This document shows positions 42,778 through 64,000 of a stretch of 64,000 nt of DNA, one piece after another (the stretch's first letter is position 1; each line of letters starts with the position of its first letter). Both the position numbers and the translations under genes were made by a program. The stretch lies in assembly GCA_900617105.1 (NCBI GenBank), contig UYFQ01000004.1, forward strand, positions 62,001 through 126,000. The letters run 5' to 3'. The notes under the pieces were generated by a model, which saw nothing but the letters and a program-made list of their open reading frames with translations, was not told the origin of the DNA and did not search any database. This DNA comes from Hydrurus foetidus (lineage: Eukaryota).

Positions 42778-42797
42778 GGCAAGCCCCTGAGCCCACC

Positions 42798-47845: not shown

Positions 47846-47857
47846 GGCGCGTCGCTA

Positions 47858-48265
47858 TCAGAGCGCGTCCAGTGTCTTCTTGACGTTGCCGCCCGCTTCG
47901 GTCATGGCTTCCTCGATCTTGGGAATCTGCAGCGGAGCAGGCTCCAGTGACACCCCGGCTTGGTCAACACCGCCAATGGAAACGTCGATCTGTTCCAGCG
48001 TCTGGTCAATCTCGGGCAGCACCTGCGCATTTTCCAGCTGGACCTCCTCCAGGATAGGCAACAGCGGCGGTACCGGCGGCTTGTCGGGCAAGGTGTTGAG
48101 GTTGACCGGCGGTGTGTCGCTGGCTGGTGCAGCCGCTTCTTCCGGGGCCTCTGGCCAGCCCTTCAACATGTGGGACGGCGCGCCCAAGCCACTGCGTCCG
48201 TGCAGCGGCGTCTGCGCCGCCAGGAACTCGCGCATGCGTTGGATGACTTCCGCATCAGACAGCAT
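47858..48265 (-). CDS. Hypothetical acidic protein (135 aa) in the T6SS operon
   Basis: 17 nt downstream of tssA on the same strand; fills the gap to the next gene. Confidence 0.7.
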   Translation of the reverse strand: MLSDAEVIQRMREFLAAQTPLHGRSGLGAPSHMLKGWPEAPEEAAAPASDTPPVNLNTLPDKPPVPPLLPILEEVQLENAQVLPEIDQTLEQIDVSIGGVDQAGVSLEPAPLQIPKIEEAMTEAGGNVKKTLDAL

Positions 48266-48282
48266 AGGTCACCATCTATCGT

Positions 48283-49446
48283 TCAACCCTTGGGGTCTTT
48301 GATGCCCAGCAGGGAGAAATAACGGCTGATATCGCCTTCCTCGCGCACGATCTCCTGCATCAAATCCGCCAGTGACATGCGACCCCACGTGACGGCGCGC
48401 TTGACCAGGTACGGCGTGGGACTGTGCGGCTCCGTCCTATCCAGGTAGTCTGCAACGGCTTCCAGCATGCGATAGGCATCTTCACGGCTGTTGATAGGGC
48501 CCATGGCGTTGTCACTTTCAGGTTTAGGAAGGGTTGCGGGCAGCGGATGCACAGATGCACTGACCACGGGCGATACAGTGGGTGTTGGCGTCACTGGTGC
48601 CACTTGCGCTGGTGTGGGGGCGATCACCGGCGGCGCCTTGGGCTTGGGCTCGCGCCCTGCGATCAAGGTCTCGCACATGCGCTGCATGCGCTGCAAGACT
48701 TCCAATACCTTGGCCACACTGGGCGCCCGCATTCCCATTTTTCCGTCGAGCTCCCGCGTGAAAGCCTCCCACGCCGCCGCGCTTTGAAGCAACAGATTAC
48801 GGTTGTCAATTAGCAGCTGCAATTGCACACCTGAAGCACCTGCCACAATTTCCGAGCGCGTAGGGATGGGGCTCTCGACCACCACATTCTTGGACGATGC
48901 AGCCTTCTTGGCCTCTGGCTTGCGATTCTCCAGCGCCAGGGCCTGATCCCAGTCAAACACGTTCACGGCGCTGGGCATGCGCTCCGGCAAATGCATTAAG
49001 GGCACGCACAGCATGAGCACGCGCGGCAGGTTTTCATTCATCCAGTACAGCGGCGCAATACGGGACTCATCGTCATCTGCCTCAATCTGGGGATGGGCCG
49101 TATCCCAGTACTGCTCAACCAGCCCAGTGATCAGCGTGACTGCAGCAAGGAACCCCTTCAACTGGTGCTGGTGTGTCCAGGCTTCACAAAGCCACGCCGC
49201 CACCTGAAAATCTTTGGAGCGACTGCGCAAAATGGCCGTGGCGTTGTCCGTGACCACGCGCCAGTCGGCCTTTTTTAGAGGCCGCTCCCACTCGCGCATG
49301 GGCAGTCGCGGATCTTCTTCTTCGCGCGCACCCCGTATCGCCAGGTACTGTGGGTCGTAGCGCATGGAGGGGCCCGCTGGCAATTCGCCTGCCACTGGTA
49401 CGAGCAACCCTCCTATGTCCGGCCGGAATTCGTCGGAATCGTCCAT
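48283..49446 (-). CDS. tssA: Type VI secretion protein TssA (ImpA N-terminal domain)
   Basis: RYDP.Y..IR.AREEED, DW..V, SKDFQVAAWL, C-terminal SREDA...EPHSP.PYL..RAV.WG. Confidence 0.92.
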   Translation of the reverse strand: MDDSDEFRPDIGGLLVPVAGELPAGPSMRYDPQYLAIRGAREEEDPRLPMREWERPLKKADWRVVTDNATAILRSRSKDFQVAAWLCEAWTHQHQLKGFLAAVTLITGLVEQYWDTAHPQIEADDDESRIAPLYWMNENLPRVLMLCVPLMHLPERMPSAVNVFDWDQALALENRKPEAKKAASSKNVVVESPIPTRSEIVAGASGVQLQLLIDNRNLLLQSAAAWEAFTRELDGKMGMRAPSVAKVLEVLQRMQRMCETLIAGREPKPKAPPVIAPTPAQVAPVTPTPTVSPVVSASVHPLPATLPKPESDNAMGPINSREDAYRMLEAVADYLDRTEPHSPTPYLVKRAVTWGRMSLADLMQEIVREEGDISRYFSLLGIKDPKG

Positions 49447-49457
49447 GGTGCGAATGC

Positions 49458-52400
49458 CTACTGGCCGTTGAATTCAGGCGCCCGGACAGGGAAGGACACA
49501 GGCCAGACCATTGGCGTGCGTTTACCCACCGGGAACAGTGTCAGCTTGAGAAAGACCTTGGCACGGGTATCCGGCTGGGCACCCTTGCCAGGCTCCGACC
49601 CGGTGCCAATGGGAAATTCCATGCGCAACAATTGGGTGCGCAGATCACCCCGGCCACTGGGGTCCGCTTCGCGCTGGCGCTGGAGCATGCGCACCAGCGA
49701 CCACGTGTCAGTGAAACGGTAGGTCACCGTTTTGCCGTCGACTGTCATGGCGGCTTGCTGGGGGTCCGGCAGGGCGTTACCAGGAATATCCTTGGCAAGG
49801 CGCAGGGTCAACGTCACCGGCATGCCGGGTTCCCAGCGCAACAAGCGAGGGGTATCACGCAGCTTGAGCGTCTGCGGCCCGACATCCAGCGACCAATCGA
49901 TGACCTTGTTGCCTTCCACTTCCGCGACCTGATTGGCACGAAACTCCACCATCACATCGTAGCCAGGCACCATGCCATCTTCTGGGGGGTACAAGGGGGC
50001 AATGAAGGCGCGTACGCGCTCGAACTGGTCGGAGAATTTACGCACGGCCTGTGAATAGGGGGCCGCACGGTTCACCGCCTGCGGGTCCTTCAAGACACGG
50101 GACAGCTTCTCGGACATCTTCAGCAGCTGGTTGACATCTTCGTAATCAGCATCAATCGAGTCTTTGATACCCGGCACCGCAAACGGGGCCCGGCCTGCAA
50201 CCTGCCCATTAAAGGCGTTCGCAAACGCAGACCACTGATCGAGCTGCTCGGCATACCGCAGTTCGTTGCAGCGCCTGAGCAAGGCGTTGTAGACCTGTAC
50301 ATGCCGCTCCGCAAAATAGTCTGCAGGCCGGCTTCCTGGGGACTTCCCGCTCAGCTTTTCAGAGCAGGTGCTACGGTCAGTCTCTGCACCAGCCGTCAGC
50401 AGAAATTGCTCATACATGCCCAGGCTGCTGTTCGGGTTTTTGCTGCGGTACCGTTCCAGCTCGCGGTTGATGGCCTGCCACCGATTGGCTAGCTGCCCAT
50501 CGGTCGATATCTTATCCAGCGACGGCAGGTAGATTTCGGCCTGTCGCCCAAATGCATCGGCGCGGCTGAATTGCAGCGCCAGATACTGCTGCATGGCCTG
50601 GGTATCTGGCACGCCGAATGCCTGCAGCAAGGGGCCGCGATCGCCAGTCCAGTAGTTGAAATCACGGCCACGAATCGCGTAGAGATCAGACTGATTGAGG
50701 CTCTTGTCAATCTGACGCAGGCGAACACTCGCATCCGCAGACACCAGGCGCTGCAAGGTATCTGCTGCGGTATTGGCACCAAGATCCGACAACAGGGCCT
50801 CCACTTTGGAGAGTCGGCCGCGTGCCACGTCAAACGCATTGGCATCGCTCACATTGGCGGCATCTACCCGACCACTCACGGAAAGAGCGTCGACGATGCG
50901 GTCGTTGATCAACCGTGCAAATTGTGTGTTCAGAAATGCCACCACACCGGGGCGATTGGAAGAGGGGAACTTCAGCAACCCCTCAGCCATGAACCGCTTG
51001 TGCATGTCCCCCAATGCCAATGCCTGGTCCAGCTTGGTGACATCCCACATCAGAACACCCTGCGCAGGTATCTCCGGGATATCGCGATCCCCTGGCGGGG
51101 TCATGAAGGGTTGGCCCAGCAGGCCAGCAATCGCGTCACGCAGTCCAAGCCGCTGGACTGAGAGTCCGTAGCGAGCTTCCTTTTCCTGCCAAACGATGTC
51201 GCTTTGTTGCTCGGGGTTGGAGCGCGCAGAGAATTCGGTGGAGAACTTCAAAAACTCATTGACAGCATGCTGGCGCACTTGCTCGGCGGCCTCGGGGCCC
51301 AGCAGTCGTGTCGCCTGCGCAATTCGGTCCAGCACAGCGGCATAGGCCTTGCCAAGGTCGAAGTTCAACTCGTGCATCCAGCCGCCACGGCCAGTGGCGA
51401 GCATATTTTCTTGCTCCCGAATGATGCTCAGGATGTCCTTGTATCCCGCCACCGTCTGGGCAAAACCTGTGACGCGGAAATCGGTCGATAGCAGTCGGTA
51501 GCTCAAGGCAGCCAACTGCCGCTCGAGCACCATGAGGTCGTTGTTGACAAACACGCGCTGGTCCAGCGTGTTCATGCCTTTGACCAGGGAGCACCGTACC
51601 GCCTGCTGCATGTGCATGACACTGACACCGTTGGAGGCGCCCGGCCCAGAATCACTTTTGCGCAGCAAACGCAAGCTTTGCGAGATATTGCTGGGCAACT
51701 CTGCACCCAACGTAAATTTAACCAGCAGGCGCAAATCATTGGCATCGTTGGCCCCGCCCTTTTGCAGGCGCTTCATGGCTTCCACCGCCTGATCAAGCCG
51801 CTCAACCGACGCGATGTATTGCAGCATGGCTGCGAATTCAGCGGTGTCCTCTACCGCCAGAACCGCCTTGTGGGTCGCCCCTACCACGGGTACCGGGTTC
51901 AGGCACTCACCACCAATAATCAGTTCCGAGGTGCTCTCGTCTTGCGCAACGCCTGTGAGCTCGGAGGCTCGTGCATAGAGCTCCCGGCGCAACGTACCAA
52001 TGGCAATTTCGCCAAACTCCCGTTCCACGCGCTCAACGACACGCGAGTCAAGGTTGTCCCAGATGGGCCAGGAACCCGGCATGAACACGGAGAACATTTT
52101 CTGTGTTCCCAGTTCCTCAATAACTCTCAAAAGCGTCAGTGTGCGGGCCCTGTACCATTCGGGCGCGATGGACTCGCCACTGCCCGTCTTCTGCGTTCGG
52201 TATCGGGCGTCTGTTTCAATCTGCTGCAGCGTCGCGCTGAGCTGGTTGCTGCGATGGCTCAGCTGCAAGGTGGCGACAACCAGCCCCACGCTCCAGCCGC
52301 CCAGAACCACCACGGCGGTGAATTGGCCCACGCGGGTGAGCATGGGACGCGCAAGCGGTTGGCGCGACGGACGCGCCAACCCATACTCCATGAATATTTT

Positions 52401-53522
52401 CTTTTCGAACAGATCACGCAGGAACGCGGGCTCCTGCATGAGCCGGGATACTAGGTCAGCGGTATCCAAAGATTCCAGTGCAGGCTCAGCATCGGCCTCC
52501 ACGAACTGCGCGCCAGCAGTTTGCGCAGACTGGCTGCTATCCCCTGTGAAATAGATGCCCCGGAAGAAAAACGGCTCATGGTAAGCACTGGGACGCATGA
52601 GTTCGTCTGTGTAGAGCTGCAATTGGTCACGCAGTGCTTCAATCCGAGTCGGCAGCAAGAAGAAACTTCTGGTGTCGATCAAAGTCTGCTTACTGGAAAA
52701 CAACTCGGCCGACGTATCCGAAATGGTGCGTACCACGCCATCCAAAGCTTCACCGACCCAGGTATCTTGATAAGTGGTCGACAGGTCATAGGGCGAGGAC
52801 CACCCCAGCATGCCCGCGCGCATGGGCTCTGGCAAGGTTCGGGCAAACGCAGAGAAGCCCTCAATCTTCTCGCAACCCGATATCGCGACATACACCGCAA
52901 AGCGCATGGCAAACCGATTTTGGGCGAGCCACAAACGGCGGTGGGCCAACCGTGCCATCTTGCCCAACTCCAGCGCAGCATCCGGGCTCGCGTCTGTCAG
53001 CATGGCTGCTGGCACCGTGATCACCACCGAATCAAATGGGCGTTGGGGACGGTATTTATGGCACAGACTTAAAAATTCGTCCCACGGTTTCTCGGCTGCA
53101 TTTTCGTCATCCGGAGACCCCAGATAGGCGCCCTGCATTTCCACAACAACGCCCTTGTCGAAGAAATGCCAGGAGATACCCTGCGAAGTGGCAGCGGACG
53201 CAGCTTCGGAGCTCAAGGCGCTTGGCACGCCCGACTGCTCAATAGGCAAGCCGCGTTGGTCCAAGCCTTCATTCAACACCAGCACCCATGGGATTCCGTA
53301 GCGTTCTGATCGTGCGGCAATATTGCCCTCGATCAACTCGACCGCCTGACGGAAAGAATTGCGCAGGGAGTCGAAGCGCAACTTGGCCAGCTTGGGATCA
53401 CTGCCGGGTTTAGCAGAAGCGCTGCGCATGGCGAAATAAAGCACCAGTCCCAAGACCGCCAAGACGATCAAGGTCAGTAGGGCGAGCGATGCAAGAAACA
53501 GGTTATCCCGCAAGATACTCAT
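49458..53522 (-). CDS. tssM: TssM/IcmF-like membrane-complex protein, atypical
   Basis: IPW.LVL, W.FFDKGVV, RPQRPFDSVV, RF.VYV.ISGC....GF..F, FFRGIYFTG, F..DLF..KIF.E; TM helix near aa 400; follows tssL. Confidence 0.82.
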   Translation of the reverse strand: MSILRDNLFLASLALLTLIVLAVLGLVLYFAMRSASAKPGSDPKLAKLRFDSLRNSFRQAVELIEGNIAARSERYGIPWVLVLNEGLDQRGLPIEQSGVPSALSSEAASAATSQGISWHFFDKGVVVEMQGAYLGSPDDENAAEKPWDEFLSLCHKYRPQRPFDSVVITVPAAMLTDASPDAALELGKMARLAHRRLWLAQNRFAMRFAVYVAISGCEKIEGFSAFARTLPEPMRAGMLGWSSPYDLSTTYQDTWVGEALDGVVRTISDTSAELFSSKQTLIDTRSFFLLPTRIEALRDQLQLYTDELMRPSAYHEPFFFRGIYFTGDSSQSAQTAGAQFVEADAEPALESLDTADLVSRLMQEPAFLRDLFEKKIFMEYGLARPSRQPLARPMLTRVGQFTAVVVLGGWSVGLVVATLQLSHRSNQLSATLQQIETDARYRTQKTGSGESIAPEWYRARTLTLLRVIEELGTQKMFSVFMPGSWPIWDNLDSRVVERVEREFGEIAIGTLRRELYARASELTGVAQDESTSELIIGGECLNPVPVVGATHKAVLAVEDTAEFAAMLQYIASVERLDQAVEAMKRLQKGGANDANDLRLLVKFTLGAELPSNISQSLRLLRKSDSGPGASNGVSVMHMQQAVRCSLVKGMNTLDQRVFVNNDLMVLERQLAALSYRLLSTDFRVTGFAQTVAGYKDILSIIREQENMLATGRGGWMHELNFDLGKAYAAVLDRIAQATRLLGPEAAEQVRQHAVNEFLKFSTEFSARSNPEQQSDIVWQEKEARYGLSVQRLGLRDAIAGLLGQPFMTPPGDRDIPEIPAQGVLMWDVTKLDQALALGDMHKRFMAEGLLKFPSSNRPGVVAFLNTQFARLINDRIVDALSVSGRVDAANVSDANAFDVARGRLSKVEALLSDLGANTAADTLQRLVSADASVRLRQIDKSLNQSDLYAIRGRDFNYWTGDRGPLLQAFGVPDTQAMQQYLALQFSRADAFGRQAEIYLPSLDKISTDGQLANRWQAINRELERYRSKNPNSSLGMYEQFLLTAGAETDRSTCSEKLSGKSPGSRPADYFAERHVQVYNALLRRCNELRYAEQLDQWSAFANAFNGQVAGRAPFAVPGIKDSIDADYEDVNQLLKMSEKLSRVLKDPQAVNRAAPYSQAVRKFSDQFERVRAFIAPLYPPEDGMVPGYDVMVEFRANQVAEVEGNKVIDWSLDVGPQTLKLRDTPRLLRWEPGMPVTLTLRLAKDIPGNALPDPQQAAMTVDGKTVTYRFTDTWSLVRMLQRQREADPSGRGDLRTQLLRMEFPIGTGSEPGKGAQPDTRAKVFLKLTLFPVGKRTPMVWPVSFPVRAPEFNGQ

Positions 53523-54277
53523 TTGCCACCTTCCTGGCTTGTACTGGCACCAGTTTGTAGTACGTCACGCACGGGCCACGACTGCCATAGCCACAACAAT
53601 TCGGATACGGCCAAAAGCCCCAGTATTCCCACCAGAAAAATGACCGACCAGCGACTCAAGGTAGGCATCTTGCGCGGCGAGAGATGCGACAAGGTACTGG
53701 CATACGCGCGCTCGGACAGCACACGGTCACGCCCCGACAAATCCGCCTGGCGCTGGTACACAAACTGGAACAACTCGGCACGGTAGCCGGCGAAGCGTTC
53801 GGTAGCGGCGGAGCCGCGGAACCGCCCCTGAAACCCTAAAGCCAGAGCAAACAGATAGAGGGCGGCAATCGGTCGTAACGACGGCTCCCGATTGGAGAGC
53901 AGTTCTTCGATTTTTTCAAATATGCGATCACCCGCGAAGCTCGTGCGGAACAGTGAGGCCTCCAGCAGATGGTCGGTCCAGCGATCGCGGCCAATCCATT
54001 CCGTATTGAGCAGAATTTCATCAGCCAGGGCCGCTTTCAGGTATCGCGCATCGGCAATGCTCTGCAATTCCGAACGGCTGCCTTCGCGTTTGGACTCCAG
54101 CGTCTGGAGTTCGATCAATTGCTCCAGATCCTTGCTTACTGCGGCCGCAGCGGCATCGGGGTTGATCTCCCGCATCTCGATCGCACGTGTTTGCGCCTTG
54201 GAAACCTCTGCAAAGAACGCGCGAAATTGCGCGATCAAATGGTCGTCTTCGTGTTTGTCTCGGATCTGACGGGCCAT
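53519..54277 (-). CDS. tssL: TssL/DotU family protein (no OmpA domain)
   Basis: RY..AALADE, W....LE..LF....AGD..F, LALGFQGRFRG, C-terminal TM helix; ATGA overlap with tssM. Confidence 0.9.
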   Translation of the reverse strand: MARQIRDKHEDDHLIAQFRAFFAEVSKAQTRAIEMREINPDAAAAAVSKDLEQLIELQTLESKREGSRSELQSIADARYLKAALADEILLNTEWIGRDRWTDHLLEASLFRTSFAGDRIFEKIEELLSNREPSLRPIAALYLFALALGFQGRFRGSAATERFAGYRAELFQFVYQRQADLSGRDRVLSERAYASTLSHLSPRKMPTLSRWSVIFLVGILGLLAVSELLWLWQSWPVRDVLQTGASTSQEGGK

Positions 54278-54301
54278 GCGCAAATTGCTCCTGTTTCAGT
54301 C

Positions 54302-55630
54302 TCAGCCTTTGACGAACAGCACCATCTCTTGAGGGCGCTGCGCCGTGGCGCTTTCCGCAGAATTGCTAATTACCAATGCCTCAGCGGTCAATATCAATGC
54401 TTCGTCGAGCTTGATGGAAAACAAGGTGTATCCGGCACTCGCACGCACCCCAAGCTCTTTGGACGATTCAATGAATGTCCGCTCTGCACCCAATACCCTG
54501 CGCTCACGCAGGGAGCCATAGGTGGACTGTGATCCGACAATGGCACCTTCCATCCAGGCGATCAATTCACGCTCAGGCTGACCGCGCAAGCCCACGATGA
54601 GTTGGGGCGCCATCCACTCGCCCAGCAGCACAATCTCAAACGCCCCGTGGCGGAATTCGAACTTGAATTCTCGGTAGTCTTGGCTGATTTCATCCAGAGC
54701 CCCCTGCAACGCAGCCAACACAGGGGTCAACGTGGCCAAAGGATCGGCGTGATCGTATTCCGGCGGCACCGGAGGCAGTCCACCGGGACGCAGCAAACTT
54801 AATGGGCCCAAGAGACTGCACAGAGACAGAAACAATTGGTAGGGGTGCAAGGCGGGCGTACGCATGACCGCCTCCACCAGCGGCAGACCCGTCATCAGGT
54901 TGCGCAAGCGTTCGCGTTGCTCCAGATAGGCCAAGCGGTCTTCCGTACGCGAAGATGGCACCGCGGTCTGCTTGGCCACAAAAGCCGCTTTGCCACGCAA
55001 TTGCGCCACAAACGTGGCCAAACGTTCCCATAGATCACCCTCTTTGGCAACCTCCAGCAGGGGCGGCAATGTTGCGCCCAATTTGGTCACCTCATTGTCC
55101 TTGAACACGGTGACCAACCTGAAGCTGGTGTAGAGACCGGACGGCGCGCCCCCCGCAACAAGCGACAAATGGGGAAGCAGGCGCGGCACATCGGCAGGCA
55201 AGGCCTCGGAAACCTCATCCTCGACTGCAACGGTCGCTACCGAGCGGAATCGCGAAGGTGTGCCACTAAAACGCATGCTGGACGAAACCGGCAAAGCGAG
55301 ATGGATATCCAGAGCCGCATTCGACATGGCCACCGCATGGGGGCCCAAATCCAGCTCCAACACGCCGTGCTGCGCATCCTGCGCAGAATAAACCACCGCC
55401 GTGCCATCCGGCATGACCGCTTCCAACTGGCTTACTCGCAAGATCCCTGCCGCCAACAAGGCGGTATCTATCTTGAGCCGACGCACTCCCCAGGCAAACG
55501 GAACCGCCACCTGGATCTGCCAAGCCAGCAACGCATCGACACGCCCCGACTCTTGCTGGAAATGCTGAGGCGAGAGGAGCATGCCCTCATGCCATTGAAT
55601 CCGCGCTCGCGGCTGACTTGGGTTATTCAT
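54302..55630 (-). CDS. tssK: Type VI secretion baseplate subunit TssK
   Basis: WHEGMLLSPQHFQQ, WGV..L, MPDGT, HP..L...L, YDH.D. Confidence 0.92.
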   Translation of the reverse strand: MNNPSQPRARIQWHEGMLLSPQHFQQESGRVDALLAWQIQVAVPFAWGVRRLKIDTALLAAGILRVSQLEAVMPDGTAVVYSAQDAQHGVLELDLGPHAVAMSNAALDIHLALPVSSSMRFSGTPSRFRSVATVAVEDEVSEALPADVPRLLPHLSLVAGGAPSGLYTSFRLVTVFKDNEVTKLGATLPPLLEVAKEGDLWERLATFVAQLRGKAAFVAKQTAVPSSRTEDRLAYLEQRERLRNLMTGLPLVEAVMRTPALHPYQLFLSLCSLLGPLSLLRPGGLPPVPPEYDHADPLATLTPVLAALQGALDEISQDYREFKFEFRHGAFEIVLLGEWMAPQLIVGLRGQPERELIAWMEGAIVGSQSTYGSLRERRVLGAERTFIESSKELGVRASAGYTLFSIKLDEALILTAEALVISNSAESATAQRPQEMVLFVKG

Positions 55631-55696
55631 TGCCGGCCTCCTGTTGCTGATCCACGGCGAAAGTCTTGGTGTCGATCAACATGGAGGCTCCCGAGT

Positions 55697-56203
55697 TCAT
55701 TTGAGGGACTGCGCGGTAACCGTGAAATCACGGGCACCCAGTTGAACCAACACCGTACCCTGCAGCTGATCAACCCGGATTCGATGCTCGCCAGGCGTCA
55801 AATAGTCGGCATACATCACAACACCGGCCACCCGTGCAGACCCAAAATCTGCAGCTGCAATACGCAAGGTCTGTCCCGGTGCGACCTCAAAGCTCTTGTA
55901 ATTGATCGCCTGTGGGAAGGTCTTTTCCATCTCACCCCGCGTCGCGAACCACTTCGCCGCAGGCATACTTATCAACATGTTCAGTGAGGCCTCATCCTTA
56001 AGGACCACCACATCAAGGGCCACCGGGCTATTGAGGTTGGCGTCATTGGCCGCCAGGATAGTGACACTGTCCCATGCCAGTTTCACACCTTTCGGCGACG
56101 CGAAATCCATCATCCCTTTGGGAATGATGTAGTCCAAGACTCCACAGGCCGTCAGGTTGAGCAGTGCTAGGGTGAGGAGGGCGGACTTTAGAAATGTATT
56201 CAT
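55697..56203 (-). CDS. tssJ: TssJ-like outer-membrane lipoprotein
   Basis: Lipobox LTAC, DANLNSPVALDVV, E..PGQ, ADY..PGEHR; immediately upstream of tssK. Confidence 0.72.
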   Translation of the reverse strand: MNTFLKSALLTLALLNLTACGVLDYIIPKGMMDFASPKGVKLAWDSVTILAANDANLNSPVALDVVVLKDEASLNMLISMPAAKWFATRGEMEKTFPQAINYKSFEVAPGQTLRIAAADFGSARVAGVVMYADYLTPGEHRIRVDQLQGTVLVQLGARDFTVTAQSLK

Positions 56204-57687
56204 TTTGCGATAGAAGGATTATCCACTAGCAATTCACCAGAAAGAGTGGTCACAGGCCGCCCTGATCCCGGGCTACCTGTTCTTTGTCCCACGGTGATCC
56301 CGATGACCACAATCAAGCTGGCCAGCGCCACTCCACACAAAACTGCAAACGACGCGCTCTTGCGCGTAAAGGCGAACTGAACGGGGGCAATCACAGCCGT
56401 ATCTTCGGCCTGCTTGACCTCCGTCCGCTCAGAAGGCAATCCTCTGCACACGAGAACGATCAGGACGCAGCAACAGAGGGTAGAAAGCAAATTGCGTGGT
56501 GCCTCACAAATCAGATCAATAGCAAGGAACAGTGCCAGCGCAGCCTCGATAGGCAAATTCAGCAACGACAACACCACGCTGCCCGAGCCAACCACAGCAA
56601 AGCTGCTGGCCCCAGCCGACGCAAACGCCGATAACGTGGCGCCTACACAAATCAGCATCAACTCGGTACCGTCCAGCGTTTGCCCGTAAACATTGGCAAC
56701 AAAAACCGCCAGCAGTGCAAAGTAGACGGCAGAGCCCGCGCGGACAAAAATAGACGCTGCAGGCACCACCAGCTCCACAATGCCACGGCTATAACCCAGC
56801 TTGGCACTCATGGCACGAATGGTGTCGGGCACGGCCGCCGTGGAACTGGCCGACGTCAAACTGATCAACGCGGGCGTCTTCAAACACGACAAGACGGTCA
56901 ATAGCGGTATCGCGGAATTTCGCCACACCAAAATCGTGGCCAGCACGGCCAGTAACACGGACAGCGCAGCGAACGCCACAAGGAAAGAGCTCATGGCCCG
57001 CAAAACCTGGGCATCCGCACTGGCAGCAAAATGCGCCGCAAGACCAAAAACCAACACCGGGATAAGCAAGTTCACCCGCGAAATAATCATTTCAAATGTG
57101 CGGTAGATCGCCTCAAAAATTCCCATCAGCGCATTGCTGCGGGCCTTACCCATAGAGGCAAAGGCGAGTCCAAACAGGATCGCGCAAATGAGTATCCCGA
57201 GAGGTTGCCCCAGGGCCAGGGCTTTGAAAAAGTTGTCCGGTAGAAAAGCCCCCCATGCGTGGACCGCTCCTGCCGCGCTTGGGATGTCCGCATCAAAAAG
57301 GGAGAACTCTGCATTGCCAGCAGCCGAACTCAGCACCACAGCCCCCAAATAGGCCCTGTTGGTGGCATTCAAACTGCTCCCAGGGTCCGTCAAGTATCCG
57401 AAAAATGTACCCAGCGTGGCCGACAGAAACACCAGCCCCACGGCAAACACCACAATCATCAGGCTTCTGCGGGCCGGCATTGGCAAGGCCAACGTCTGGC
57501 GCAAACCGAAGAAAGTGGCGACGACCATCAAGGGGATCGCCACCATGTTAATCAACGCAAGGTAGACCTGCCCCAATACAAACGCAGGTTCCGCGACGCC
57601 AGGAGCGGCGCTACCCGCCACCGCACCGGCCAACAGGCACAGCAGCAGCATGAAAGGACTGGACGCGAGCGTTTTCAGGAGTCCCAT
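56200..57687 (-). CDS. DAACS/SLC1 (dicarboxylate/amino acid:cation symporter) family protein 2, degenerate motifs, extra C-terminal TM helix
   Basis: Y..L..M..IP, PDNFFKAL, FGLA, SASS.AA.P, LP.....LFLAID...E..R. ATG 57687 preferred over GTG 57702. Confidence 0.85.
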   Translation of the reverse strand: MGLLKTLASSPFMLLLCLLAGAVAGSAAPGVAEPAFVLGQVYLALINMVAIPLMVVATFFGLRQTLALPMPARRSLMIVVFAVGLVFLSATLGTFFGYLTDPGSSLNATNRAYLGAVVLSSAAGNAEFSLFDADIPSAAGAVHAWGAFLPDNFFKALALGQPLGILICAILFGLAFASMGKARSNALMGIFEAIYRTFEMIISRVNLLIPVLVFGLAAHFAASADAQVLRAMSSFLVAFAALSVLLAVLATILVWRNSAIPLLTVLSCLKTPALISLTSASSTAAVPDTIRAMSAKLGYSRGIVELVVPAASIFVRAGSAVYFALLAVFVANVYGQTLDGTELMLICVGATLSAFASAGASSFAVVGSGSVVLSLLNLPIEAALALFLAIDLICEAPRNLLSTLCCCVLIVLVCRGLPSERTEVKQAEDTAVIAPVQFAFTRKSASFAVLCGVALASLIVVIGITVGQRTGSPGSGRPVTTLSGELLVDNPSIAK

Positions 57688-58391
57688 CCCGGCCTGTTCC
57701 ACCCACGTTCGAGGGCATACGCGACGCTGGCACGCGCCAACTCAAGGGAACTGTCAATCAAGATCAAGCCGGCAGTGTCCGCGTGGCGAGAGGCAATGGG
57801 GATTTCGGTGCACCCCATGATCAGTGCCGTGGCACCTGCGGCTACCGCTGCGGCACAAGCGCGCTCTAGGGACGATCCGGCCACGTCAAAGCGCCCGGCC
57901 TTAACTTCGCGTATGCACAGATCCACATCCTCTTGGCCTCGCACAGGGTCAGGCGTAAGGTAGTCAATGCCCTGCATCTCCAATGACCGCTGGTAAAAGC
58001 CCGATAGCAACGCCCCCCGAGTCGCAAAGATGGCAACGCGTGTAGCTTGCGATCTCGGCACGACGGCCACACTGACTTCGGCGATGTGCAGCAAGGGCGC
58101 ATTGCTACGCTCACGCAACTGCGCAAACCAATGGTGCGAAGAATTGCAGGGAATGGCGATGACGCCAACACCGGCGTGGTTGAGCAAGTCAACACCGGCT
58201 AGCAGCTGCGGGAGGGGGTCGGGGCCATGACCCAGGATGGCTCTGGAGCGGTCATGCGTGTGAGGCAGGCTTGCAACCAGTACCGGGATGTGATCTTGGT
58301 CGCGCGTAGCAGGGGTCAGTCGCACCAACTTCTCCATGAAGTCGACTGTTGCCAAGGGTCCCATTCCGCCAAATACACCGATTCGTGCCAT
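57675..58391 (-). CDS. Aspartate/glutamate racemase family protein (PLP-independent, two catalytic Cys)
   Basis: IGVFGGMGPLAT, DQDHIP, IPCNSSH, MGCTEIP, IDS; no signal peptide. Confidence 0.92.
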   Translation of the reverse strand: MARIGVFGGMGPLATVDFMEKLVRLTPATRDQDHIPVLVASLPHTHDRSRAILGHGPDPLPQLLAGVDLLNHAGVGVIAIPCNSSHHWFAQLRERSNAPLLHIAEVSVAVVPRSQATRVAIFATRGALLSGFYQRSLEMQGIDYLTPDPVRGQEDVDLCIREVKAGRFDVAGSSLERACAAAVAAGATALIMGCTEIPIASRHADTAGLILIDSSLELARASVAYALERGWNRPGWDS

Positions 58392-58404
58392 CCTGCGTGC
58401 CCCT

Positions 58405-59682
58405 CTAGATCTTTAGGGGTTTTGCGCAGACCACGGAGACCGCAGCACTGTTGCCGATGACCAAGACCAGCGTGCGTAGCATGTCGCAAATCGGATCCAC
58501 AGCCAAAAAGAGGATGAACGCCGCCTCAAATGGCAGCCCCAAATAGCTGCAGGTGAGACCGACAAGCGACACCGTCAGCAAGCCTGTCATCCCTGCCGAC
58601 GCAAAGCCGGCCAAAATGGAAGCCGCCATGACAATACCTAGCTCGCTCGGCCCAAGTACGCGACCGTAGAGCTGTGCAATGAAAATAGTGGCGGCCACGT
58701 AGTAAATAACGGGGCCTACGCGGAGCAACGACACACTCAATGGGACCAGCAACTCTACCCGGGACCGGGCAAACCCCAAACGATCCACCAACCCCTCAAT
58801 CATGATGGGCATGCAGGTGGCGCTGCTGCGCGTAGCAAGCGCCAAAGCAAAAGGCCCCCGTAAAGCCCCCAGAGTCTGACTCAAACTGGCGTTTGACCGC
58901 TTCCAGATAATGAGAGTCGCCAAGGCGAGCGCCAACAGCGAAGCGACTGTAAAAGTCAAAACAAACTGTGCCATAGCCTGCAGTGGCCCCAGCCCGGTCT
59001 TCGCCATCTGCGAAGCGCTCATGCACAACAAGATGATGGGCAGAGGGTAGTTCAACCATCGCATGAGTGTTTGGCACGCGTGGTAAATCGTTTCCAATGA
59101 ATAGGTCAGTCCATCTGCGATGCGCGATGGCACTTGCCCGACCGCAAAGCCGAACATCAAGGCGAACACCAACGCCTTGAGCGTCTCCCCCCCCGCCAAG
59201 GCCGCAAAAATGTTGGAGGGCACGATACTTATCAGTACGTCCGCAAAATTGACCGACTTGGCAGGTGCGTCCACGCCCTGCAGACTCATCACGGTATCGC
59301 TGGAGTTGAGGTCGTTGCCTACGATCTTGCCAAAGGTCTGCCGTGTCTGGATAGACAAATCCTCACCGGGACGAAGCACCAGCAAAGTGGCGGCTCCCAA
59401 GGCCGCAACCACTATAGAGAATATGACAAACACGGCCCCGACACGCGCCAGCAAGCTTCCAGCACCTCCTTCGCGAAACAGCCGCTGCAAGCTGAATATC
59501 ACCGCAGACACCATGAAGGGCAAGGCAATCATTTTGAGCAAGTCGACATAGACGTCGCCCACAATGCCCAGGTTGCGCGCCAGAGCTGGTTGGTACAGCC
59601 CCAACGCAAACCCGGCTGCCAGCATGGAAAGAACGATCCAGGGGTTAAGTGCGAGTGCGTAGAGTTTTTTGGAATCAATCAT
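58405..59682 (-). CDS. DAACS/SLC1 family protein 1
   Basis: GD.Y..LLKMIALP, IVPSNIF.AL, ATRSSATCMP, G.ASAG, AVDPICDMLRT...VIGN. Confidence 0.9.
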   Translation of the reverse strand: MIDSKKLYALALNPWIVLSMLAAGFALGLYQPALARNLGIVGDVYVDLLKMIALPFMVSAVIFSLQRLFREGGAGSLLARVGAVFVIFSIVVAALGAATLLVLRPGEDLSIQTRQTFGKIVGNDLNSSDTVMSLQGVDAPAKSVNFADVLISIVPSNIFAALAGGETLKALVFALMFGFAVGQVPSRIADGLTYSLETIYHACQTLMRWLNYPLPIILLCMSASQMAKTGLGPLQAMAQFVLTFTVASLLALALATLIIWKRSNASLSQTLGALRGPFALALATRSSATCMPIMIEGLVDRLGFARSRVELLVPLSVSLLRVGPVIYYVAATIFIAQLYGRVLGPSELGIVMAASILAGFASAGMTGLLTVSLVGLTCSYLGLPFEAAFILFLAVDPICDMLRTLVLVIGNSAAVSVVCAKPLKI

Positions 59683-59702
59683 GAGGAAACGTCCATCAGC
59701 CT

Positions 59703-60671
59703 TTATTGCGACACTGCCTTGAGAACCTTGTCGATCGTTAGTTTTTCCGTTCCCTCTGCCAGGAATTGGTTTACAAATGCCAGCAGCGTCGGATCCTGGA
59801 TACCTACTGCGATACCCAAACTGTCTTCAAGATCCTTAAAGGTCACTGTGCGCAGCGTCAGCGAAACCGTGGGGTCGATTTTCAGCAGTCGCTTGATCTC
59901 GAATTCATCGCGGTAAGCCGCCATGATCTGGCCTTTTTCAAGCGCTTTCAGCACATCGCCCCAACTGGGAAACTCGCGTATCTCGGCATTGGGGAAGTTC
60001 TTGACCGCATAGTCGGCAAATGACGATTTTGCGATCACCCCAATGGACCCTTTGAAACCACGGATGACGGCCGGCAAAGGACGGTCACCCGCCAACTCTG
60101 CGAACTTGACGCGATTCAGAACAAACGCATGGTTCAAGCGCAGATACGGATCGGTGAAACTGATGGTTTGAGCGCGCGCTAAAGTACGAGAAAGTTTGCT
60201 AATCCCAAGATCCGCCTCCTGGCGAGCCACTACCGCAACCACTTCGTTGAAAGTCTGCGCGCTGCGATCAAACCGCACGGTAACTTTAAGCTGTTTTGCA
60301 ATCGCTTTGGCCAGGTCAACCTCCAGCCCCACCAGTTCGCCATCCCGGGTGTAAAAGAAAGGCGGCGAATCTACACCAAGCATGGCTACGATAAGTTCTC
60401 CACGATTGACGATCCGAGCAATGTCAGGGGCCAACAAACGTCCATCGGCTACCTTGACCAACGTCGAACTCGGCAATGCCGGGGCAGGGACGAGCGCGGC
60501 CACCTCGACCATGGCTGCTGGTTTCGCAGTTGCGGGGGTCAGAGGTGCGCCTTGCACCCCCATTGTCATCCACGCACCCGTCAATAGCGCAACGCACTGG
60601 AGTGCGTGTCGGATCACGGGTCGTGACCTGCGGTGCAAAGGTAAGCTCCGGTAATTCTTCATCATGTTCAT
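59703..60671 (-). CDS. Periplasmic polar amino-acid-binding protein (SBP family 3)
   Basis: Hydrophobic signal segment; I..RGEL.VAM...DSPPF, G.EVDLAKAIA..L.V, DLGISKLS.T..R...I.FT.PY. Confidence 0.88.
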   Translation of the reverse strand: MNMMKNYRSLPLHRRSRPVIRHALQCVALLTGAWMTMGVQGAPLTPATAKPAAMVEVAALVPAPALPSSTLVKVADGRLLAPDIARIVNRGELIVAMLGVDSPPFFYTRDGELVGLEVDLAKAIAKQLKVTVRFDRSAQTFNEVVAVVARQEADLGISKLSRTLARAQTISFTDPYLRLNHAFVLNRVKFAELAGDRPLPAVIRGFKGSIGVIAKSSFADYAVKNFPNAEIREFPSWGDVLKALEKGQIMAAYRDEFEIKRLLKIDPTVSLTLRTVTFKDLEDSLGIAVGIQDPTLLAFVNQFLAEGTEKLTIDKVLKAVSQ

Positions 60672-60895
60672 GGTTTGGTTGTAGGTACCAACGGGGCCAC
60701 CAGCTCGGCAGCACCCGGCAACTTAGGCGGTGCAGGCAACGCCTTGGAAAGATCTGGGGCCTGGATACTGATCGTTTGGCCAGCCATTTTCTGCCCAATC
60801 TCTAGACCCACCAGGAAAAGCAAAACACAAAGCAGCACGAGACACGCCCCGGCCAAGGTAACCATGCGCGGCGTCATTGAAAAGGTGTATTGCAT
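60668..60895 (-). CDS. Small single-pass membrane protein (75 aa)
   Basis: One TM helix ending GxxxGQK plus a Pro-rich tail; 17 nt after DUF4280; ATGA overlap with the SBP gene. Confidence 0.72.
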   Translation of the reverse strand: MQYTFSMTPRMVTLAGACLVLLCVLLFLVGLEIGQKMAGQTISIQAPDLSKALPAPPKLPGAAELVAPLVPTTKP

Positions 60896-60912
60896 GAACT
60901 AGTGACCTCGCG

Positions 60913-61299
60913 TTAGGGGACCATGACCGTCGTTTGCCCTGGCACCAAGACCTGAATCACACCACCCCAATTGCACATCAATTTGGAAGAGTTCTGCAAG
61001 CTCGGCATGCCTCCCACCATCACGGTCGGCGCCCCAGGCGCCCAGGGGGCCGCCGTGACGGGTATGCATGGCATGGGTGTCAACACGCCCAGTGCCGCTG
61101 CCGTCGCCGCTATAACCATCGGGTTGGCCGGGCAGTTGCACACACCAAAGGGCAGAATGTTGACCATGGGCTTGTTGTCCATGATGTTGGCCGCAGGGGT
61201 ACCTGTCATGACCTTATTGGCAGGCAGCACCATCAGCGTTCCCGGCGCCGCGCCAAAACTGCACTGAAGATTGGCGCCCATGGCTACTTGAATTCCCAT
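60913..61299 (-). CDS. DUF4280 PAAR-like spike-tip protein
   Basis: GA.LQCSFG, NI.PFG.C, C.P....W.PG.PTV, S.LMC.WGG.I. Confidence 0.9.
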   Translation of the reverse strand: MGIQVAMGANLQCSFGAAPGTLMVLPANKVMTGTPAANIMDNKPMVNILPFGVCNCPANPMVIAATAAALGVLTPMPCIPVTAAPWAPGAPTVMVGGMPSLQNSSKLMCNWGGVIQVLVPGQTTVMVP

Positions 61300-61301
61300 G
61301 T

Positions 61302-62000
61302 TCAGCCTTTCACTAGTTGTTCGAGCCGCTGCATTATGCCGGGCTTGGCACTGCTGCTCTGTATTTCGTCGCCGTTCTGATCGAAGCTGCGCACTGCAGA
61401 AATCGGCTTGCCGGCCTTGTAGTCCTGTGTCTCCAGAATCTTCCCGTCGGGCCAGAAACGCATCACGGTACCGTCCAGCAGATTGTCTTTGTAGGGGGAC
61501 TTCTGCACGGGCTTTCCATCGCGGTTGAAGTCCACAGTCTCTCCGTTTTGCAGGTTCGCCCTGTAAGTCACCTTGCGCACGATACGGCCCTCGCTCAGGT
61601 AGAGCGCCTCGCCTTCGAGCAGGCCTTGCACATACATCTGCTTGGCAGAGACTTCTCCGGCCTCGGAGTACATCACGCTGGGGCCGTGCAACTTGCCCTG
61701 TTGGTAGTTCTGCTCCATCAACCGCCGACCTGCCGCGTAGATACGCGTCACACCGTGCTGCACTCCGGCTGCATAGCTGGCCTCCTGCAACAGGCGCCCC
61801 TGTTCGTCGCGCGTCACCAGCAACCCCTGCAGCACGCCATCCACATAGGGAGCCTTGACCTCGGTCGTGCCGTCCGCTGCAAAAGCGCTGAAATCGCCAT
61901 GCAAGACGCCTGCCAATAGGCTGGAGCGCTGCGTCAGCCGCCCCTCGCCATCGAACTGCTCGATGGTTTGCGGCGTCGCGTTGAAAGAGGCGTCGTCCAT
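61302..62000 (-). CDS. MORN-variant repeat protein (YwqK-like antitoxin family)
   Basis: About 8 repeats of Y..G.L.G....Y/F...G at 23-24 aa spacing; 1 nt after vgrG. Confidence 0.85.
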   Translation of the reverse strand: MDDASFNATPQTIEQFDGEGRLTQRSSLLAGVLHGDFSAFAADGTTEVKAPYVDGVLQGLLVTRDEQGRLLQEASYAAGVQHGVTRIYAAGRRLMEQNYQQGKLHGPSVMYSEAGEVSAKQMYVQGLLEGEALYLSEGRIVRKVTYRANLQNGETVDFNRDGKPVQKSPYKDNLLDGTVMRFWPDGKILETQDYKAGKPISAVRSFDQNGDEIQSSSAKPGIMQRLEQLVKG

Positions 62001-62001
62001 A

Positions 62002-63969
62002 TCAGTTGATCTTCACCATGCCACCTTTGAGGGTCAGCATGCCGCCGCCATCCACCGTTTGTGTCGCAGATGCCTTGCTATTGACCATGGCACCTTCGTT
62101 GTCCAGCGTAGTGCCAGCCTTATTCTTGAGGCCGGTCCCGGCCTGATTGGTTAGCTCCGTTCCGGCCTTGTTGGTCAAGGCAGTCCCTGCCTCATTGGTG
62201 AACGTGGTGCCAGCCTTGCTCGACACGCTGCTGGCCGATTTGATGGTGATCGTGCCGGTGACATCGATCAGCAGGTCGCCCGTTACCTTGAGTTCGTATT
62301 TGCCGGTGACCGTCTGCTGAAAATCCGCCTTGTTGGTATGCGTTTCGTTGCCGGTGATGGTCAAATCTCGCGTGCCCTTGACGTTGTGGGTTTCCTTGCC
62401 GGTCTGCACGTCAACGGTGCGGTCGCCTTTTTCCAGGGTGTGGATTTCAGCGCCCTTGTGCAGCGTGGTGGTCAGATCATTTTCAATCTCCACCTTCATG
62501 TCCTTCTGGGCGTGAAAGTAAAACTCCTCGGAATCCTTTTTATCTTCCATGCGCATCTCGTTCCCGGCAGCGCCCTCTTTGGAGGAGCGCGACTTGATGG
62601 TGCTCTGGGTTTGCATGGATGGCAGCGCAACCGGCGGCACGTTCTCGGCGTTGTAGACGCTACCGGTCACCAGCGGGCGGTCCGGGTCGCCGTCCACGAA
62701 GCTGACGACGACTTCCTGCCCAATGCGCGGCAAAAACAGGCTGCCCCAGCCCTTGCCGGCCCACGACTGCGCAACCCGAACCCAGCAAGAGCTTTTGTCA
62801 TCCTTGGCACCCAGCCGGTCCCAATGGAACTGCACTTTGATGCGCCCGTGTTCATCGGTCCAGATTTCCTCGCCCGAAGGGCCGACCACGAAGGCCGTCT
62901 GGCTGCCCGATACTCTTGGCAAAGCGGTATGGCGTGGCGTGCGGTAAGGCACTGTGGCATCAAACGCTTCAAACGCATTGCAGTACTGGTCCGGGCTGGC
63001 CCAGTGTGTCACCGAGCGCAATACCAAGGCCGCGTTCAGGCTTGCACGCGGGTGGTCCGTTAAGTTGAACTTGGTTCCTGCCGTTAGCGGATAGCTGTAG
63101 CTGGTGCCACGGCAGATCGCGCCCTGGTTTTGGCTGGCCTGAGAACGCACGGTGGCACGCTGCGTTCCATCAGCGGCTACCGCATGGTTGCCGGGATAGA
63201 CAAACTGTTTTCCCTTGCCGAGGGTACCGTCCACCTCGGCTTTCAGCGCAGTGGTGGGCGTGAGGTAATTGAAATCGCCGAACTCAAACTTCTGCGACAC
63301 CAGCCGGCTTTCCAACTCCAGCTGGTTGACGATGGTCATGCGTCGGCGGCCATCCTGGTCCGGGAAATACTTCAGGTCAGTGGCATCGGCACACACCGTG
63401 TGCGCACTGGCAGCGTCGGCCAGCACCATAGTGTGTACGCCGTCGGCGAACGTAAAGTAGTAGAAGATGCCTTCTTCCTCCATCAGCCGTGCAATGAAGT
63501 CGAATGCGGTCTCGTCGTACTGGACGCAGTATTCGCGGACGCCGTAGGTGCCGGTGAGCTTGGCATCAAACACCACGGCGAAGTCTCCAAGCACTTCCTT
63601 GATGATGTCGGCCGCCGTCTTCTTCTGGTAAATCTTGCGGTCGCGGCTGAGTGTCAGCAGCCAGAGCGTAGGCACCATTTCCGCAGTGTAGAAAGAGAAT
63701 GCGTCGTCCCCTCCGGCATGCAGAAACCGCGAGGCAATGCCACTGAAATAGCGCTTTGGCCCCTTGGGCACCTGAAGTTTGACCGTCATGATCGCGCCGA
63801 TGATGGTCTTAGGGTCCAACGTCGCTTTGGCAGCGCGCATGGACAGCGAGAATTTAAAGGGCTCGGAGATGGCCTCCACACCGTGGAAGGTATCCAAGAT
63901 CAATGCATCTGCGCCGAAGGGCGTGGTCACACTCATCACGGAGTTCTGTTGGGTAAAGCCTTCACGCAT
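62002..63969 (-). CDS. vgrG: Type VI secretion spike protein VgrG (no evolved effector domain)
   Basis: E.ISEPF, REYCVQYDET..DF..RLMEEEGI, DEHGRIKVQFHWDR, SSCWVRV.Q.WAG..WG..FLPRIGQEV, HAQKDM; ends G..VKIN. Confidence 0.97.
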   Translation of the reverse strand: MREGFTQQNSVMSVTTPFGADALILDTFHGVEAISEPFKFSLSMRAAKATLDPKTIIGAIMTVKLQVPKGPKRYFSGIASRFLHAGGDDAFSFYTAEMVPTLWLLTLSRDRKIYQKKTAADIIKEVLGDFAVVFDAKLTGTYGVREYCVQYDETAFDFIARLMEEEGIFYYFTFADGVHTMVLADAASAHTVCADATDLKYFPDQDGRRRMTIVNQLELESRLVSQKFEFGDFNYLTPTTALKAEVDGTLGKGKQFVYPGNHAVAADGTQRATVRSQASQNQGAICRGTSYSYPLTAGTKFNLTDHPRASLNAALVLRSVTHWASPDQYCNAFEAFDATVPYRTPRHTALPRVSGSQTAFVVGPSGEEIWTDEHGRIKVQFHWDRLGAKDDKSSCWVRVAQSWAGKGWGSLFLPRIGQEVVVSFVDGDPDRPLVTGSVYNAENVPPVALPSMQTQSTIKSRSSKEGAAGNEMRMEDKKDSEEFYFHAQKDMKVEIENDLTTTLHKGAEIHTLEKGDRTVDVQTGKETHNVKGTRDLTITGNETHTNKADFQQTVTGKYELKVTGDLLIDVTGTITIKSASSVSSKAGTTFTNEAGTALTNKAGTELTNQAGTGLKNKAGTTLDNEGAMVNSKASATQTVDGGGMLTLKGGMVKIN

Positions 63970-64000
63970 TGCCGGTCAGTCCTCGGATGTCAGCGCAAAC

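Follow-up and report, generated by a model that had tools for sequence, protein, structure and literature searches.

A binding protein, two carriers and a racemase inside a type VI secretion cluster: a self-standing module and a T6SS-only pair

What does a set of genes for amino acid transport and racemization do in the middle of the operon of a type VI secretion system (T6SS)? The question is raised by a stretch of 64,000 nt from an assembly of Hydrurus foetidus (contig UYFQ01000004.1, positions 62,001 to 126,000; hereafter the window), in which five genes lie between the spike genes and the membrane-complex genes of a T6SS. They code for a small single-pass membrane protein, a family-3 periplasmic solute-binding protein (SBP), a carrier of the DAACS family (DAACS1), an Asp/Glu-type racemase and a second DAACS carrier (DAACS2). 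A sequence-only reading offered two models for this cassette: a kill-and-feed module which imports and racemizes D/L-Asp/Glu freed from lysed cells, or a D-amino-acid signalling circuit which gates T6SS assembly. We find that the cassette consists of two modules, a self-standing one made up of SBP, DAACS1 and racemase and a T6SS-only one made up of DAACS2 and the small protein. The former probably takes up and interconverts an aspartate-like acid, and it is equally probable that the latter serves the T6SS.

A described T6SS cluster and its two modules

Judged by gene order and protein similarity, the cassette of the window belongs to a published T6SS type, of which it is a real, conserved feature. 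Hug et al. (2021; PMC8356804) described the T6SS-b of Paraburkholderia phymatum STM815 (subtype i4a, Bphy_5985-5997), in which vgrG is followed by genes for a YwqK-like protein, a PAAR-like protein, a hypothetical protein, a binding protein, a symporter, a racemase and a second symporter. The same paper reports the cluster in 15 other strains including Rhodoferax saidenbachensis, as well as a racemase-less Janthinobacterium version, and already proposes that the symporters sense dicarboxylates. With the same eight genes behind vgrG and the sensing proposal in print, the cassette can no longer be called an undescribed system. The window and P. phymatum agree gene for gene from vgrG to tssA, with identities of 52% for SBP, 68% for DAACS1, 60% for the racemase, 48% for DAACS2, 68% over 38 aa for the small protein and 58% for TssK. 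In the TssK tree the window groups with the P. phymatum T6SS-b relatives, in a clade of 55 rows with a support of 100 which also holds locus L081. According to a reading of open reading frames (ORFs), relatives carry tssB-C-hcp-E-F-G-H upstream of vgrG; the window ends at vgrG. In the available text of Hug et al., whose Supplementary Figure 1 aligns the carriers, there is no mention of a stand-alone SBP-DAACS1-racemase set, of missing sodium sites or of a helix common to two of the proteins; the module split, the lost sites and the helix appear to be additions to the published cluster. It is also the sole paper in which we found Bphy_5990 in the main text.

A search of species genomes with DAACS1 gave 99 relatives, the best 80 of which were used as loci; the locus counts below refer to these best 80 of 99. 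T6SS genes are present in 69 of the 80 (the other 11 include one 2.5-kb contig), and since these 69 have the T6SS genes in the identical order the arrangement is not due to chance. SBP lies directly upstream of DAACS1 in all 80. DAACS2 is found in 67 of the 69 T6SS-linked loci (in one of them cut by the contig end), and the remaining two end before the place of DAACS2. Among named relatives Rhodoferax saidenbachensis BE308 is the nearest (DAACS1 96%, DAACS2 85%), and a synonymous divergence near 1 suggests a different species.

The association was also approached from the T6SS side, using TssK at E 1e-60 in the centre genome and in an even draw of 300 genomes from the family. Six TssK proteins of the window type were found; in each case DAACS2 lies 0.6-1.0 kb upstream and is itself preceded by DAACS1, and all six DAACS2 of the sample lie beside a T6SS and none elsewhere; it should be noted that some of the six genomes may overlap loci of the DAACS1 search. 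The neighbourhood search which the sequence-only reading had called for thus bears out its claim that the cassette is tied to the T6SS, as a conserved and co-inherited part of this T6SS type. A DAACS2 profile run on 400 genomes of the phylum and the centre gave 31 matches, of which 11 were read (the ten best apart from the centre and one weaker partial match) and 19 weaker ones left out. Two of the 11 are tailed DAACS2 inside a T6SS; the other nine are untailed carriers beside an SBP, four of them with a racemase, and no T6SS gene is present in the fetched DNA.

The two carriers have different histories. The 70 DAACS2 rows form one clade in a FastTree phylogeny, all from T6SS loci. The T6SS-free copies of DAACS1 are scattered among the T6SS-linked ones (seven changes on 36 chosen rows), and a tree in which T6SS-linked DAACS1 forms one clade apart from the free copies was rejected by the approximately unbiased test with p 3e-52 (the same 36 rows, an LG+G4 quick tree with long branches). 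TssC had no match in eight of ten genomes with a free DAACS1 copy, one of which is an isolate and most others metagenome-assembled genomes (MAGs) of unstated completeness.

Some free SBP-DAACS1-racemase triads can be traced to their old sites. Within the Polaromonas group a rep helicase gene lies 4-5 kb beyond tssA in four of five T6SS-bearing relatives (the fifth is fragmented); in four free triads it follows the racemase at a distance of 1.5-3.2 kb. The genes which flank the Ramlibacter albus triad (L074) on either side are those which flank complete clusters in genomes G599 and G461. To judge from these flanks several free triads are remnants in place, still intact where the whole cluster once stood, with the T6SS genes on both sides gone. 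They are under purifying selection, with a ratio of nonsynonymous to synonymous substitution rates (dN/dS) of 0.03-0.20 in four free-free pairs and 0.19-0.32 for L074 against its T6SS-linked sister. The three uptake genes can therefore also do without a T6SS altogether. Conversely, a second T6SS in genome G005 has only the small protein, SBP and DAACS2 of the cassette genes; to judge from this locus and the racemase-less ones, some T6SS-b loci can do without DAACS1 and some without the racemase. Wherever the DNA covered their places, T6SS-b loci had SBP, DAACS2 and the small protein.

Further settings of these genes deserve mention. Three T6SS-free triads (L119:6196-11386, L121 and L120:3565-11049), two of them near-identical, lie either close to anmK, with a single SDR gene intervening, or next to rpiR, murA-like, BadF kinase and murQ-like genes, hinting at cell-wall recycling in two independent contexts at most. 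Racemase-less SBP-DAACS1 pairs in L065:8282-15360, L068 and L072 are next to a formyltransferase-like gene; the other flank of L065 has NMT1-like binding protein, secretin and pentapeptide-repeat genes, and similar ORFs occur in L068 and L072. For the pair this adds a second setting related to secretion. A Sulfuricella MAG (L070:9075-13249) has the order SBP-DAACS-racemase-DAACS; a T6SS is absent from the vicinity, and TssC finds no match in this genome. Its second carrier is without the tail helix and branches between the DAACS1 and DAACS2 clades, and the arrangement may resemble the state before capture by the T6SS. Loci L004, L007 and L056 come from MAGs labelled Kapabacteria, Asaia and Akkermansia and nest among Comamonadaceae; these MAGs are probably mislabelled or mixed bins.

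The binding protein, the carriers and the racemase

Carrier residues were read against the ancestral aspartate transporter 9BGZ, and the roles of sodium-site and substrate residues are those given in the available text of PMC12668577. Both carriers score over the cut-off of PF00375 and have the GltPh fold, with a best Foldseek TM-score of 0.86 (by target) to 9BGZ. In DAACS1 the NMDGT motif has become LRVGP; the equivalents of N401 and D405 are changed (405 is N), and those of D394, R397 and T398 are kept, among them the Asp and the Arg which bind the amino acid. DAACS2 reads VRAGS at the motif, has E at 394, N at 398, S at 401 and C at 405, and its helical hairpin 1 (HP1) is degenerate. In the alignments D394 is kept in 69 and R397 in 81 of 82 DAACS1 rows; among 70 DAACS2 rows R397 is kept in 67, and position 394 is E in 59 and D in five. 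The position of M311 is R in 81 of 82 DAACS1 rows and R or K in 67 of 70 DAACS2 rows.

Neither carrier thus has the NMD motif and D405 which mark the sodium-coupled DAACS of the GltPh type, nor, with R at 311, the combination of M311L with D405N which marks the proton-coupled ones (PMC12668577, as far as available), and the NCBIfam equivalogs do not recognize them. A canonical DctA or GltP carrier is rejected as well, the GltP and DctA models scoring far under their cut-offs and R standing at the M311 position. We infer from the alignment that the arginine substitutes for sodium, and DAACS1 is likely to be the working carrier. Compared with GltPh, GltTk and the EAATs, the cassette carriers are alike in fold and in the layout of HP1, HP2 and transmembrane helix (TM) 8, and R397 is present in both and D394 in DAACS1; they differ in the replaced NMD motif, N401 and D405, in the arginine at M311, in the pairing or fusion of their subfamily with SBP_bac_3 and in the extra C-terminal helix of DAACS2.

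The same pattern of missing sodium sites marks a wide subfamily, with 849 representatives at E 1e-10 of which 150 were read. Of 22 longer members scanned, six are fused to SBP_bac_3 (P0154, P0169, P0170, P0210, P0227 and P0231) and two to Cache and adenylate cyclase (P0190 and P0196). These may represent a branch of the DAACS, not described so far, which depends on binding proteins or serves signalling; a narrow literature search found nothing on SBP-fused DAACS.

SBP has the predicted fold of a family-3 binding protein (pLDDT 93). A hydrophobic stretch lies at its N-terminus, and its pocket is basic, with K/R159, R162, R166 and R254 together with S161, T163 and D255. R166 and R254 are invariant and K/R159 is kept in 94 rows. 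If the residues have the roles of their counterparts in GlnH-type proteins, the aligned pocket is likely to suit an acidic amino acid.

In the racemase the two catalytic cysteines which define the pyridoxal phosphate-independent Asp/Glu racemases of PF01177 are present, C82 in 67 of 67 rows and C194 in 66 of 67; R48 and K164, which presumably also have a role, are kept. Both cysteines, R48 and K164 align with the Bilophila cysteate racemase CuyB, the Pyrococcus aspartate racemase (1JFL) and the Salmonella protein 3S7Z. The Bilophila unit resembles the cassette in that a PF01177 racemase stands beside an SDF carrier (PMC11193023, available text); it differs in that the cassette is without CuyA or RidA, has an SBP and lies in a T6SS setting. 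A ligand such as the sulfonate cysteate, or another acid than Asp and Glu, handled by a CuyB-like metabolic unit, or an SBP which is an enzyme like cyclohexadienyl dehydratase, is very improbable: the racemase does score 218.5 bits on the CuyB model NF052483 (cut-off 190), CuyB does adjoin an SDF carrier in Bilophila and proteins of the ancestral dehydratase lineage do come out on top of the SBP fold search, but eight of nine relatives tested also pass the CuyB cut-off, which leaves the model without discriminating power, a Pfam scan of the window finds no gene for the sulfo-lyase CuyA in the cassette, and the dehydratase matches share 17-26% identity and are interspersed with ordinary binding proteins.

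How firmly are the three proteins tied to one ligand? Among the 68 T6SS loci with enough DNA (the 69th is cut) the racemase is present in 54 and absent in 14. The D394 position, read over 95 DAACS1-type rows, is D or E in 69 of 69 from racemase loci and in six of 26 from racemase-less ones. Its 16 Ala rows fall in a single clade in which SBP carries A or G at S161; in this clade D400 of DAACS1 is changed to A or T, S161 of SBP is changed and the racemase is absent, all jointly. At the level of aligned residues this single event links SBP, DAACS1 and the racemase to a common ligand, and it shows that this ligand can change. With the racemase optional and the amino-binding residues altered in one clade, the D/L-Asp/Glu focus of both earlier models is weakened, and a reading specific for D-amino acids or peptidoglycan cannot be general.

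DAACS2, the small protein and the secretion system

After TM8 the chain of DAACS2 forms an additional helix (residues 447-476), and in the predicted structure the block of residues 441-470 has a pLDDT of 81-92. The small protein is conserved in its first ~37 residues only, with the pattern [YF]xFS[ML]TxR...LLF.LG..IG, and it is this part which matches the DAACS2 tail helix (BLASTP E 8e-4; hhalign 94-95%, E 1e-7 to 1e-8). As a control, the best non-tail window reached 31% in hhalign among 148 scored windows over DAACS1, DAACS2, TssL, SBP and TssJ. The helix ends with GxxxG in both proteins. By sequence comparison, then, the small protein and DAACS2 have a homologous membrane helix. In one distant metagenomic lineage (five loci, found with one distant DAACS2 protein as query) SBP-DAACS1-DAACS2 is inverted to the far side of tssA; the small gene stays before tssJ, shrunk to 39 residues, which is the helix alone. 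The small-protein profile has no match in 19 listed T6SS-free loci, and longer forms, for instance fused to SPOR, are absent among 7993 candidates, which is weak evidence. A complex prediction without alignments for residues 1-45 of the small protein gave 0.02 with TssL and 0.01 with TssM 1-450 against a mark of 0.34 and was counted neither way.

Against relative L001 the dN/dS is 0.09 for the small gene and 0.061 for the DAACS2 core, the whole of which is under purifying selection. In seven of seven pairs DAACS2 has a dN/dS two to seven times that of DAACS1, yet at most 0.25. A reading of DAACS2 or the small gene as pseudogene or passenger is ruled out by this selection.

We propose a mechanism in three steps. 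In the first, SBP would hand an acidic amino acid to DAACS1, working without the usual sodium sites, and the racemase would turn the D-form into the usable L-form. Taken jointly this is likely, because of the pairing with SBP (80 of 80 loci and nine of nine distant T6SS-free ones), the SBP fusions, the intact and selected free triads, the retention of D394 and R397, and the joint change of the pocket residues and racemase in one clade. In the second step, of the same likelihood, DAACS2 would have arisen by duplication and would now serve the T6SS and not nutrition; it is one clade, T6SS-only (six of six both ways), part of the minimal set of G005, and has the dN/dS pattern just described. In the third, ligand-loaded SBP or a mixed DAACS1/DAACS2 oligomer would alter the state of DAACS2, and the shared helix would relay this state to the membrane complex of TssJ, TssL and TssM and so adjust assembly or firing. 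The helix homology, the small gene staying before tssJ and the fusions to Cache and adenylate cyclase suggest this step. Overall, a coupling of ligand uptake to T6SS control through DAACS2 and the shared helix is tentative, its chances falling somewhat short of even. Of the two earlier models gating is thereby still the better guess, for DAACS2 and the small protein and not for the racemase. The wider formulation, that a branch of the carrier family traded its sodium sites for an arginine and an SBP and that its duplicated T6SS-b copy is a transceptor docking on the membrane complex, with an extracellular acid gating assembly or firing, is rather doubtful.

Known systems offer partial parallels. 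The TagQRST-PpkA system of Pseudomonas aeruginosa, cited by Hug et al., activates a T6SS post-translationally, and the VtsA-D genes of Vibrio anguillarum reportedly code for a kinase, a D-Ala-D-Ala ligase-like protein, an MFS protein and a binding protein. Such clusters are alike in having transporter-like membrane proteins and a periplasmic partner which presumably signal. They differ in the families, ABC or MFS where the cassette has DAACS, and the cassette families depart from the VtsA-D set except for the binding protein. By ORF reading, the complete T6SS-b clusters show neither an evident kinase nor an evident FHA gene.

Several points weigh against the proposed coupling. The racemase is over the cysteate-racemase cut-off, so its sequence does not pin the ligand to Asp or Glu. 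Four racemase-less T6SS loci outside the clade with the altered pocket keep D400 of DAACS1, and the joint change, being confined to that clade, is one event. With R397 and, in most rows, an acidic residue at 394, DAACS2 may be no more than a transporter. Loss of DAACS2 along with the T6SS could stem from its position next to tssJ. A comparison of TssK and DAACS trees, as suggested in the sequence-only reading, does find them congruent (patristic r 0.954 for TssK-DAACS2 over 66 loci, no housekeeping control), but TssK-TssL gives 0.955, which shows co-inheritance only, as is expected of any neighbours. In P. phymatum a T6SS-b promoter reporter was highest on citrate and low on glutamate (PMC8356804, available text), which does not favour an amino acid signal, though it concerns transcription only. 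Our literature searches found no experiments on any cassette gene.

The explanation that survives best beside the proposed coupling is a structural one. The small protein and the DAACS2 tail would be constitutive accessory helices in the membrane complex, which anchor the short TssL or help in assembly, and the triad a co-transcribed nutrient importer without signalling. Pfam and NCBIfam scans detect no peptidoglycan-binding domain in TssL, the helix is the conserved part of the small protein, the triad thrives without a T6SS, and an Atlas cluster with SPOR in 53% of its members scored 0.75, a lead only. A purely structural part is harder to reconcile with the minimal T6SS in G005, which retains SBP along with DAACS2, with selection on the whole DAACS2 core and with the SBP-DAACS1-DAACS2 block remaining beside the T6SS after inversion; we consider it unlikely.

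More unlikely still is kill-and-feed, in which the two carriers would act together as a single importer of acidic amino acids or carboxylates set free when the T6SS attacks, with the racemase rendering D-forms usable. It has no account of the helix common to DAACS2 and the small protein, nor of DAACS2 being dropped and DAACS1 kept when the T6SS goes; the racemase is optional, and no effector gene is evident by ORF reading between tssB and tssA in complete clusters. The data on P. phymatum point both ways. An insertion in the T6SS-b vgrG reduced killing of two Paraburkholderia species, with polarity not excluded (PMC5732942, as far as available), and a tssBC deletion lowered swimming by 29%, its only defect in the tests reported in the available text of PMC8356804. 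The tie to T6SS expression suggested by the sequence-only reading agrees with the available microgravity RNA-seq table (PMC10991261), in which 17 of the 20 genes Bphy_5978-5997 have negative values, all five cassette genes included, and Bphy_5974 and Bphy_5999 positive ones; such co-regulation would suit kill-and-feed, as would the three distant triads near anmK or murQ-like genes. The P. phymatum Tn-seq data have insertions in all five cassette genes in minimal medium, so that none is essential there, and the NifA supplementary tables have no rows for them.

Layout of the locus and wider meaning

The ORFs lie where the sequence-only reading had placed them and the five cassette genes belong to the families which it had named (Table 1). 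Its tssK, tssL and tssM calls hold by Pfam; tssJ remains below the curated cut-offs (PF12790 E 0.005, TIGR03352 E 3e-4), and the TssJ-like ORF has 40% identity to the P. phymatum ORF at the same place. Gaps of at most 20 nt are found as described, with 17 nt between DUF4280 and the small gene, 20 between SBP and DAACS1 and 13 between DAACS1 and the racemase, and ATGA overlaps (-4) at small/SBP and DAACS2/tssJ; tssJ and tssK are 66 nt apart. Racemase and DAACS2 overlap by 28 nt counted from the GTG, or by 13 nt from the ATG, which is more likely the start as it gives the length of the closest relatives. A promoter and terminator scan stayed at chance level, with one sigma-70-like site in 53000-64000, inside the DUF4280 gene, against 3.8 expected by chance. 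Family scans detected no C-terminal effector domain in VgrG.

Table 1. Features of the cassette and the T6SS genes around it (coordinates of the whole 64,000-nt window; families by Pfam)
Feature	Position	Strand	Length	Family and remarks
vgrG (tssI)	62002..63969	-	655 aa	VgrG; TIGR03361 over cut-off
MORN-repeat (YwqK-like) protein	61302..62000	-	232 aa	MORN_2; 39% to P. phymatum counterpart Bphy_5986
DUF4280 PAAR-like spike-tip protein	60913..61299	-	128 aa	75% to P. phymatum counterpart Bphy_5987
Small single-pass membrane protein	60668..60895	-	75 aa	no Pfam family; counterpart Bphy_5988
SBP, family-3 periplasmic solute-binding protein	59703..60671	-	322 aa	SBP_bac_3; counterpart Bphy_5989
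DAACS1	58405..59682	-	425 aa	SDF; counterpart Bphy_5990
Racemase, PLP-independent two-cysteine, aspartate/cysteate type	57675..58391	-	238 aa	Asp_Glu_race; optional; counterpart Bphy_5991
DAACS2	56200..57687	-	likely 495 aa from ATG 57687	SDF; longest ORF from GTG 57702; counterpart Bphy_5992
DAACS2 extra C-terminal strand-helix	56278..56382	-	~residues 441-475 counted from GTG	homologous to small-protein helix; ends GxxxG
Divergent TssJ-like lipoprotein	55697..56203	-	168 aa	PF12790, TIGR03352 below cut-off
tssK, short tssL, tssM, tssA	48283..55630	-		TssK (VasE), TssL (DotU), TssM (IcmF-related N), TssA (ImpA_N)

After tssA, with gaps of 17 and 12 nt, follow two minus-strand ORFs of 135 aa and 1210 aa (44213-48265), which have no match within 20 kb of the P. 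phymatum cluster. The shorter matches no family; the longer carries extended helical repeats and a tail rich in Ala and Pro. In G005 and G358 relatives precede the sheath genes, and in L062 they follow tssA; the two may therefore be additional accessory or cargo proteins which one sub-lineage of the T6SS has. On the plus strand a SulP-STAS-cNMP protein gene and a DUF3422 gene (40633-44129) run towards the end of the T6SS operon. The repetitive stretch at 32-10441 has a strong GC skew and an open frame of 3469 aa which probably belongs to a giant repeat adhesin; it adjoins genes resembling a type I secretion/cyclic-di-GMP set.

The split between a self-standing importer and a T6SS-only pair makes the role of the cassette testable. 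If the coupling is real, metabolites would control a T6SS by a new route. Even apart from the T6SS, SBP-associated carriers without sodium sites would be a new way to feed and energize the glutamate-transporter fold.

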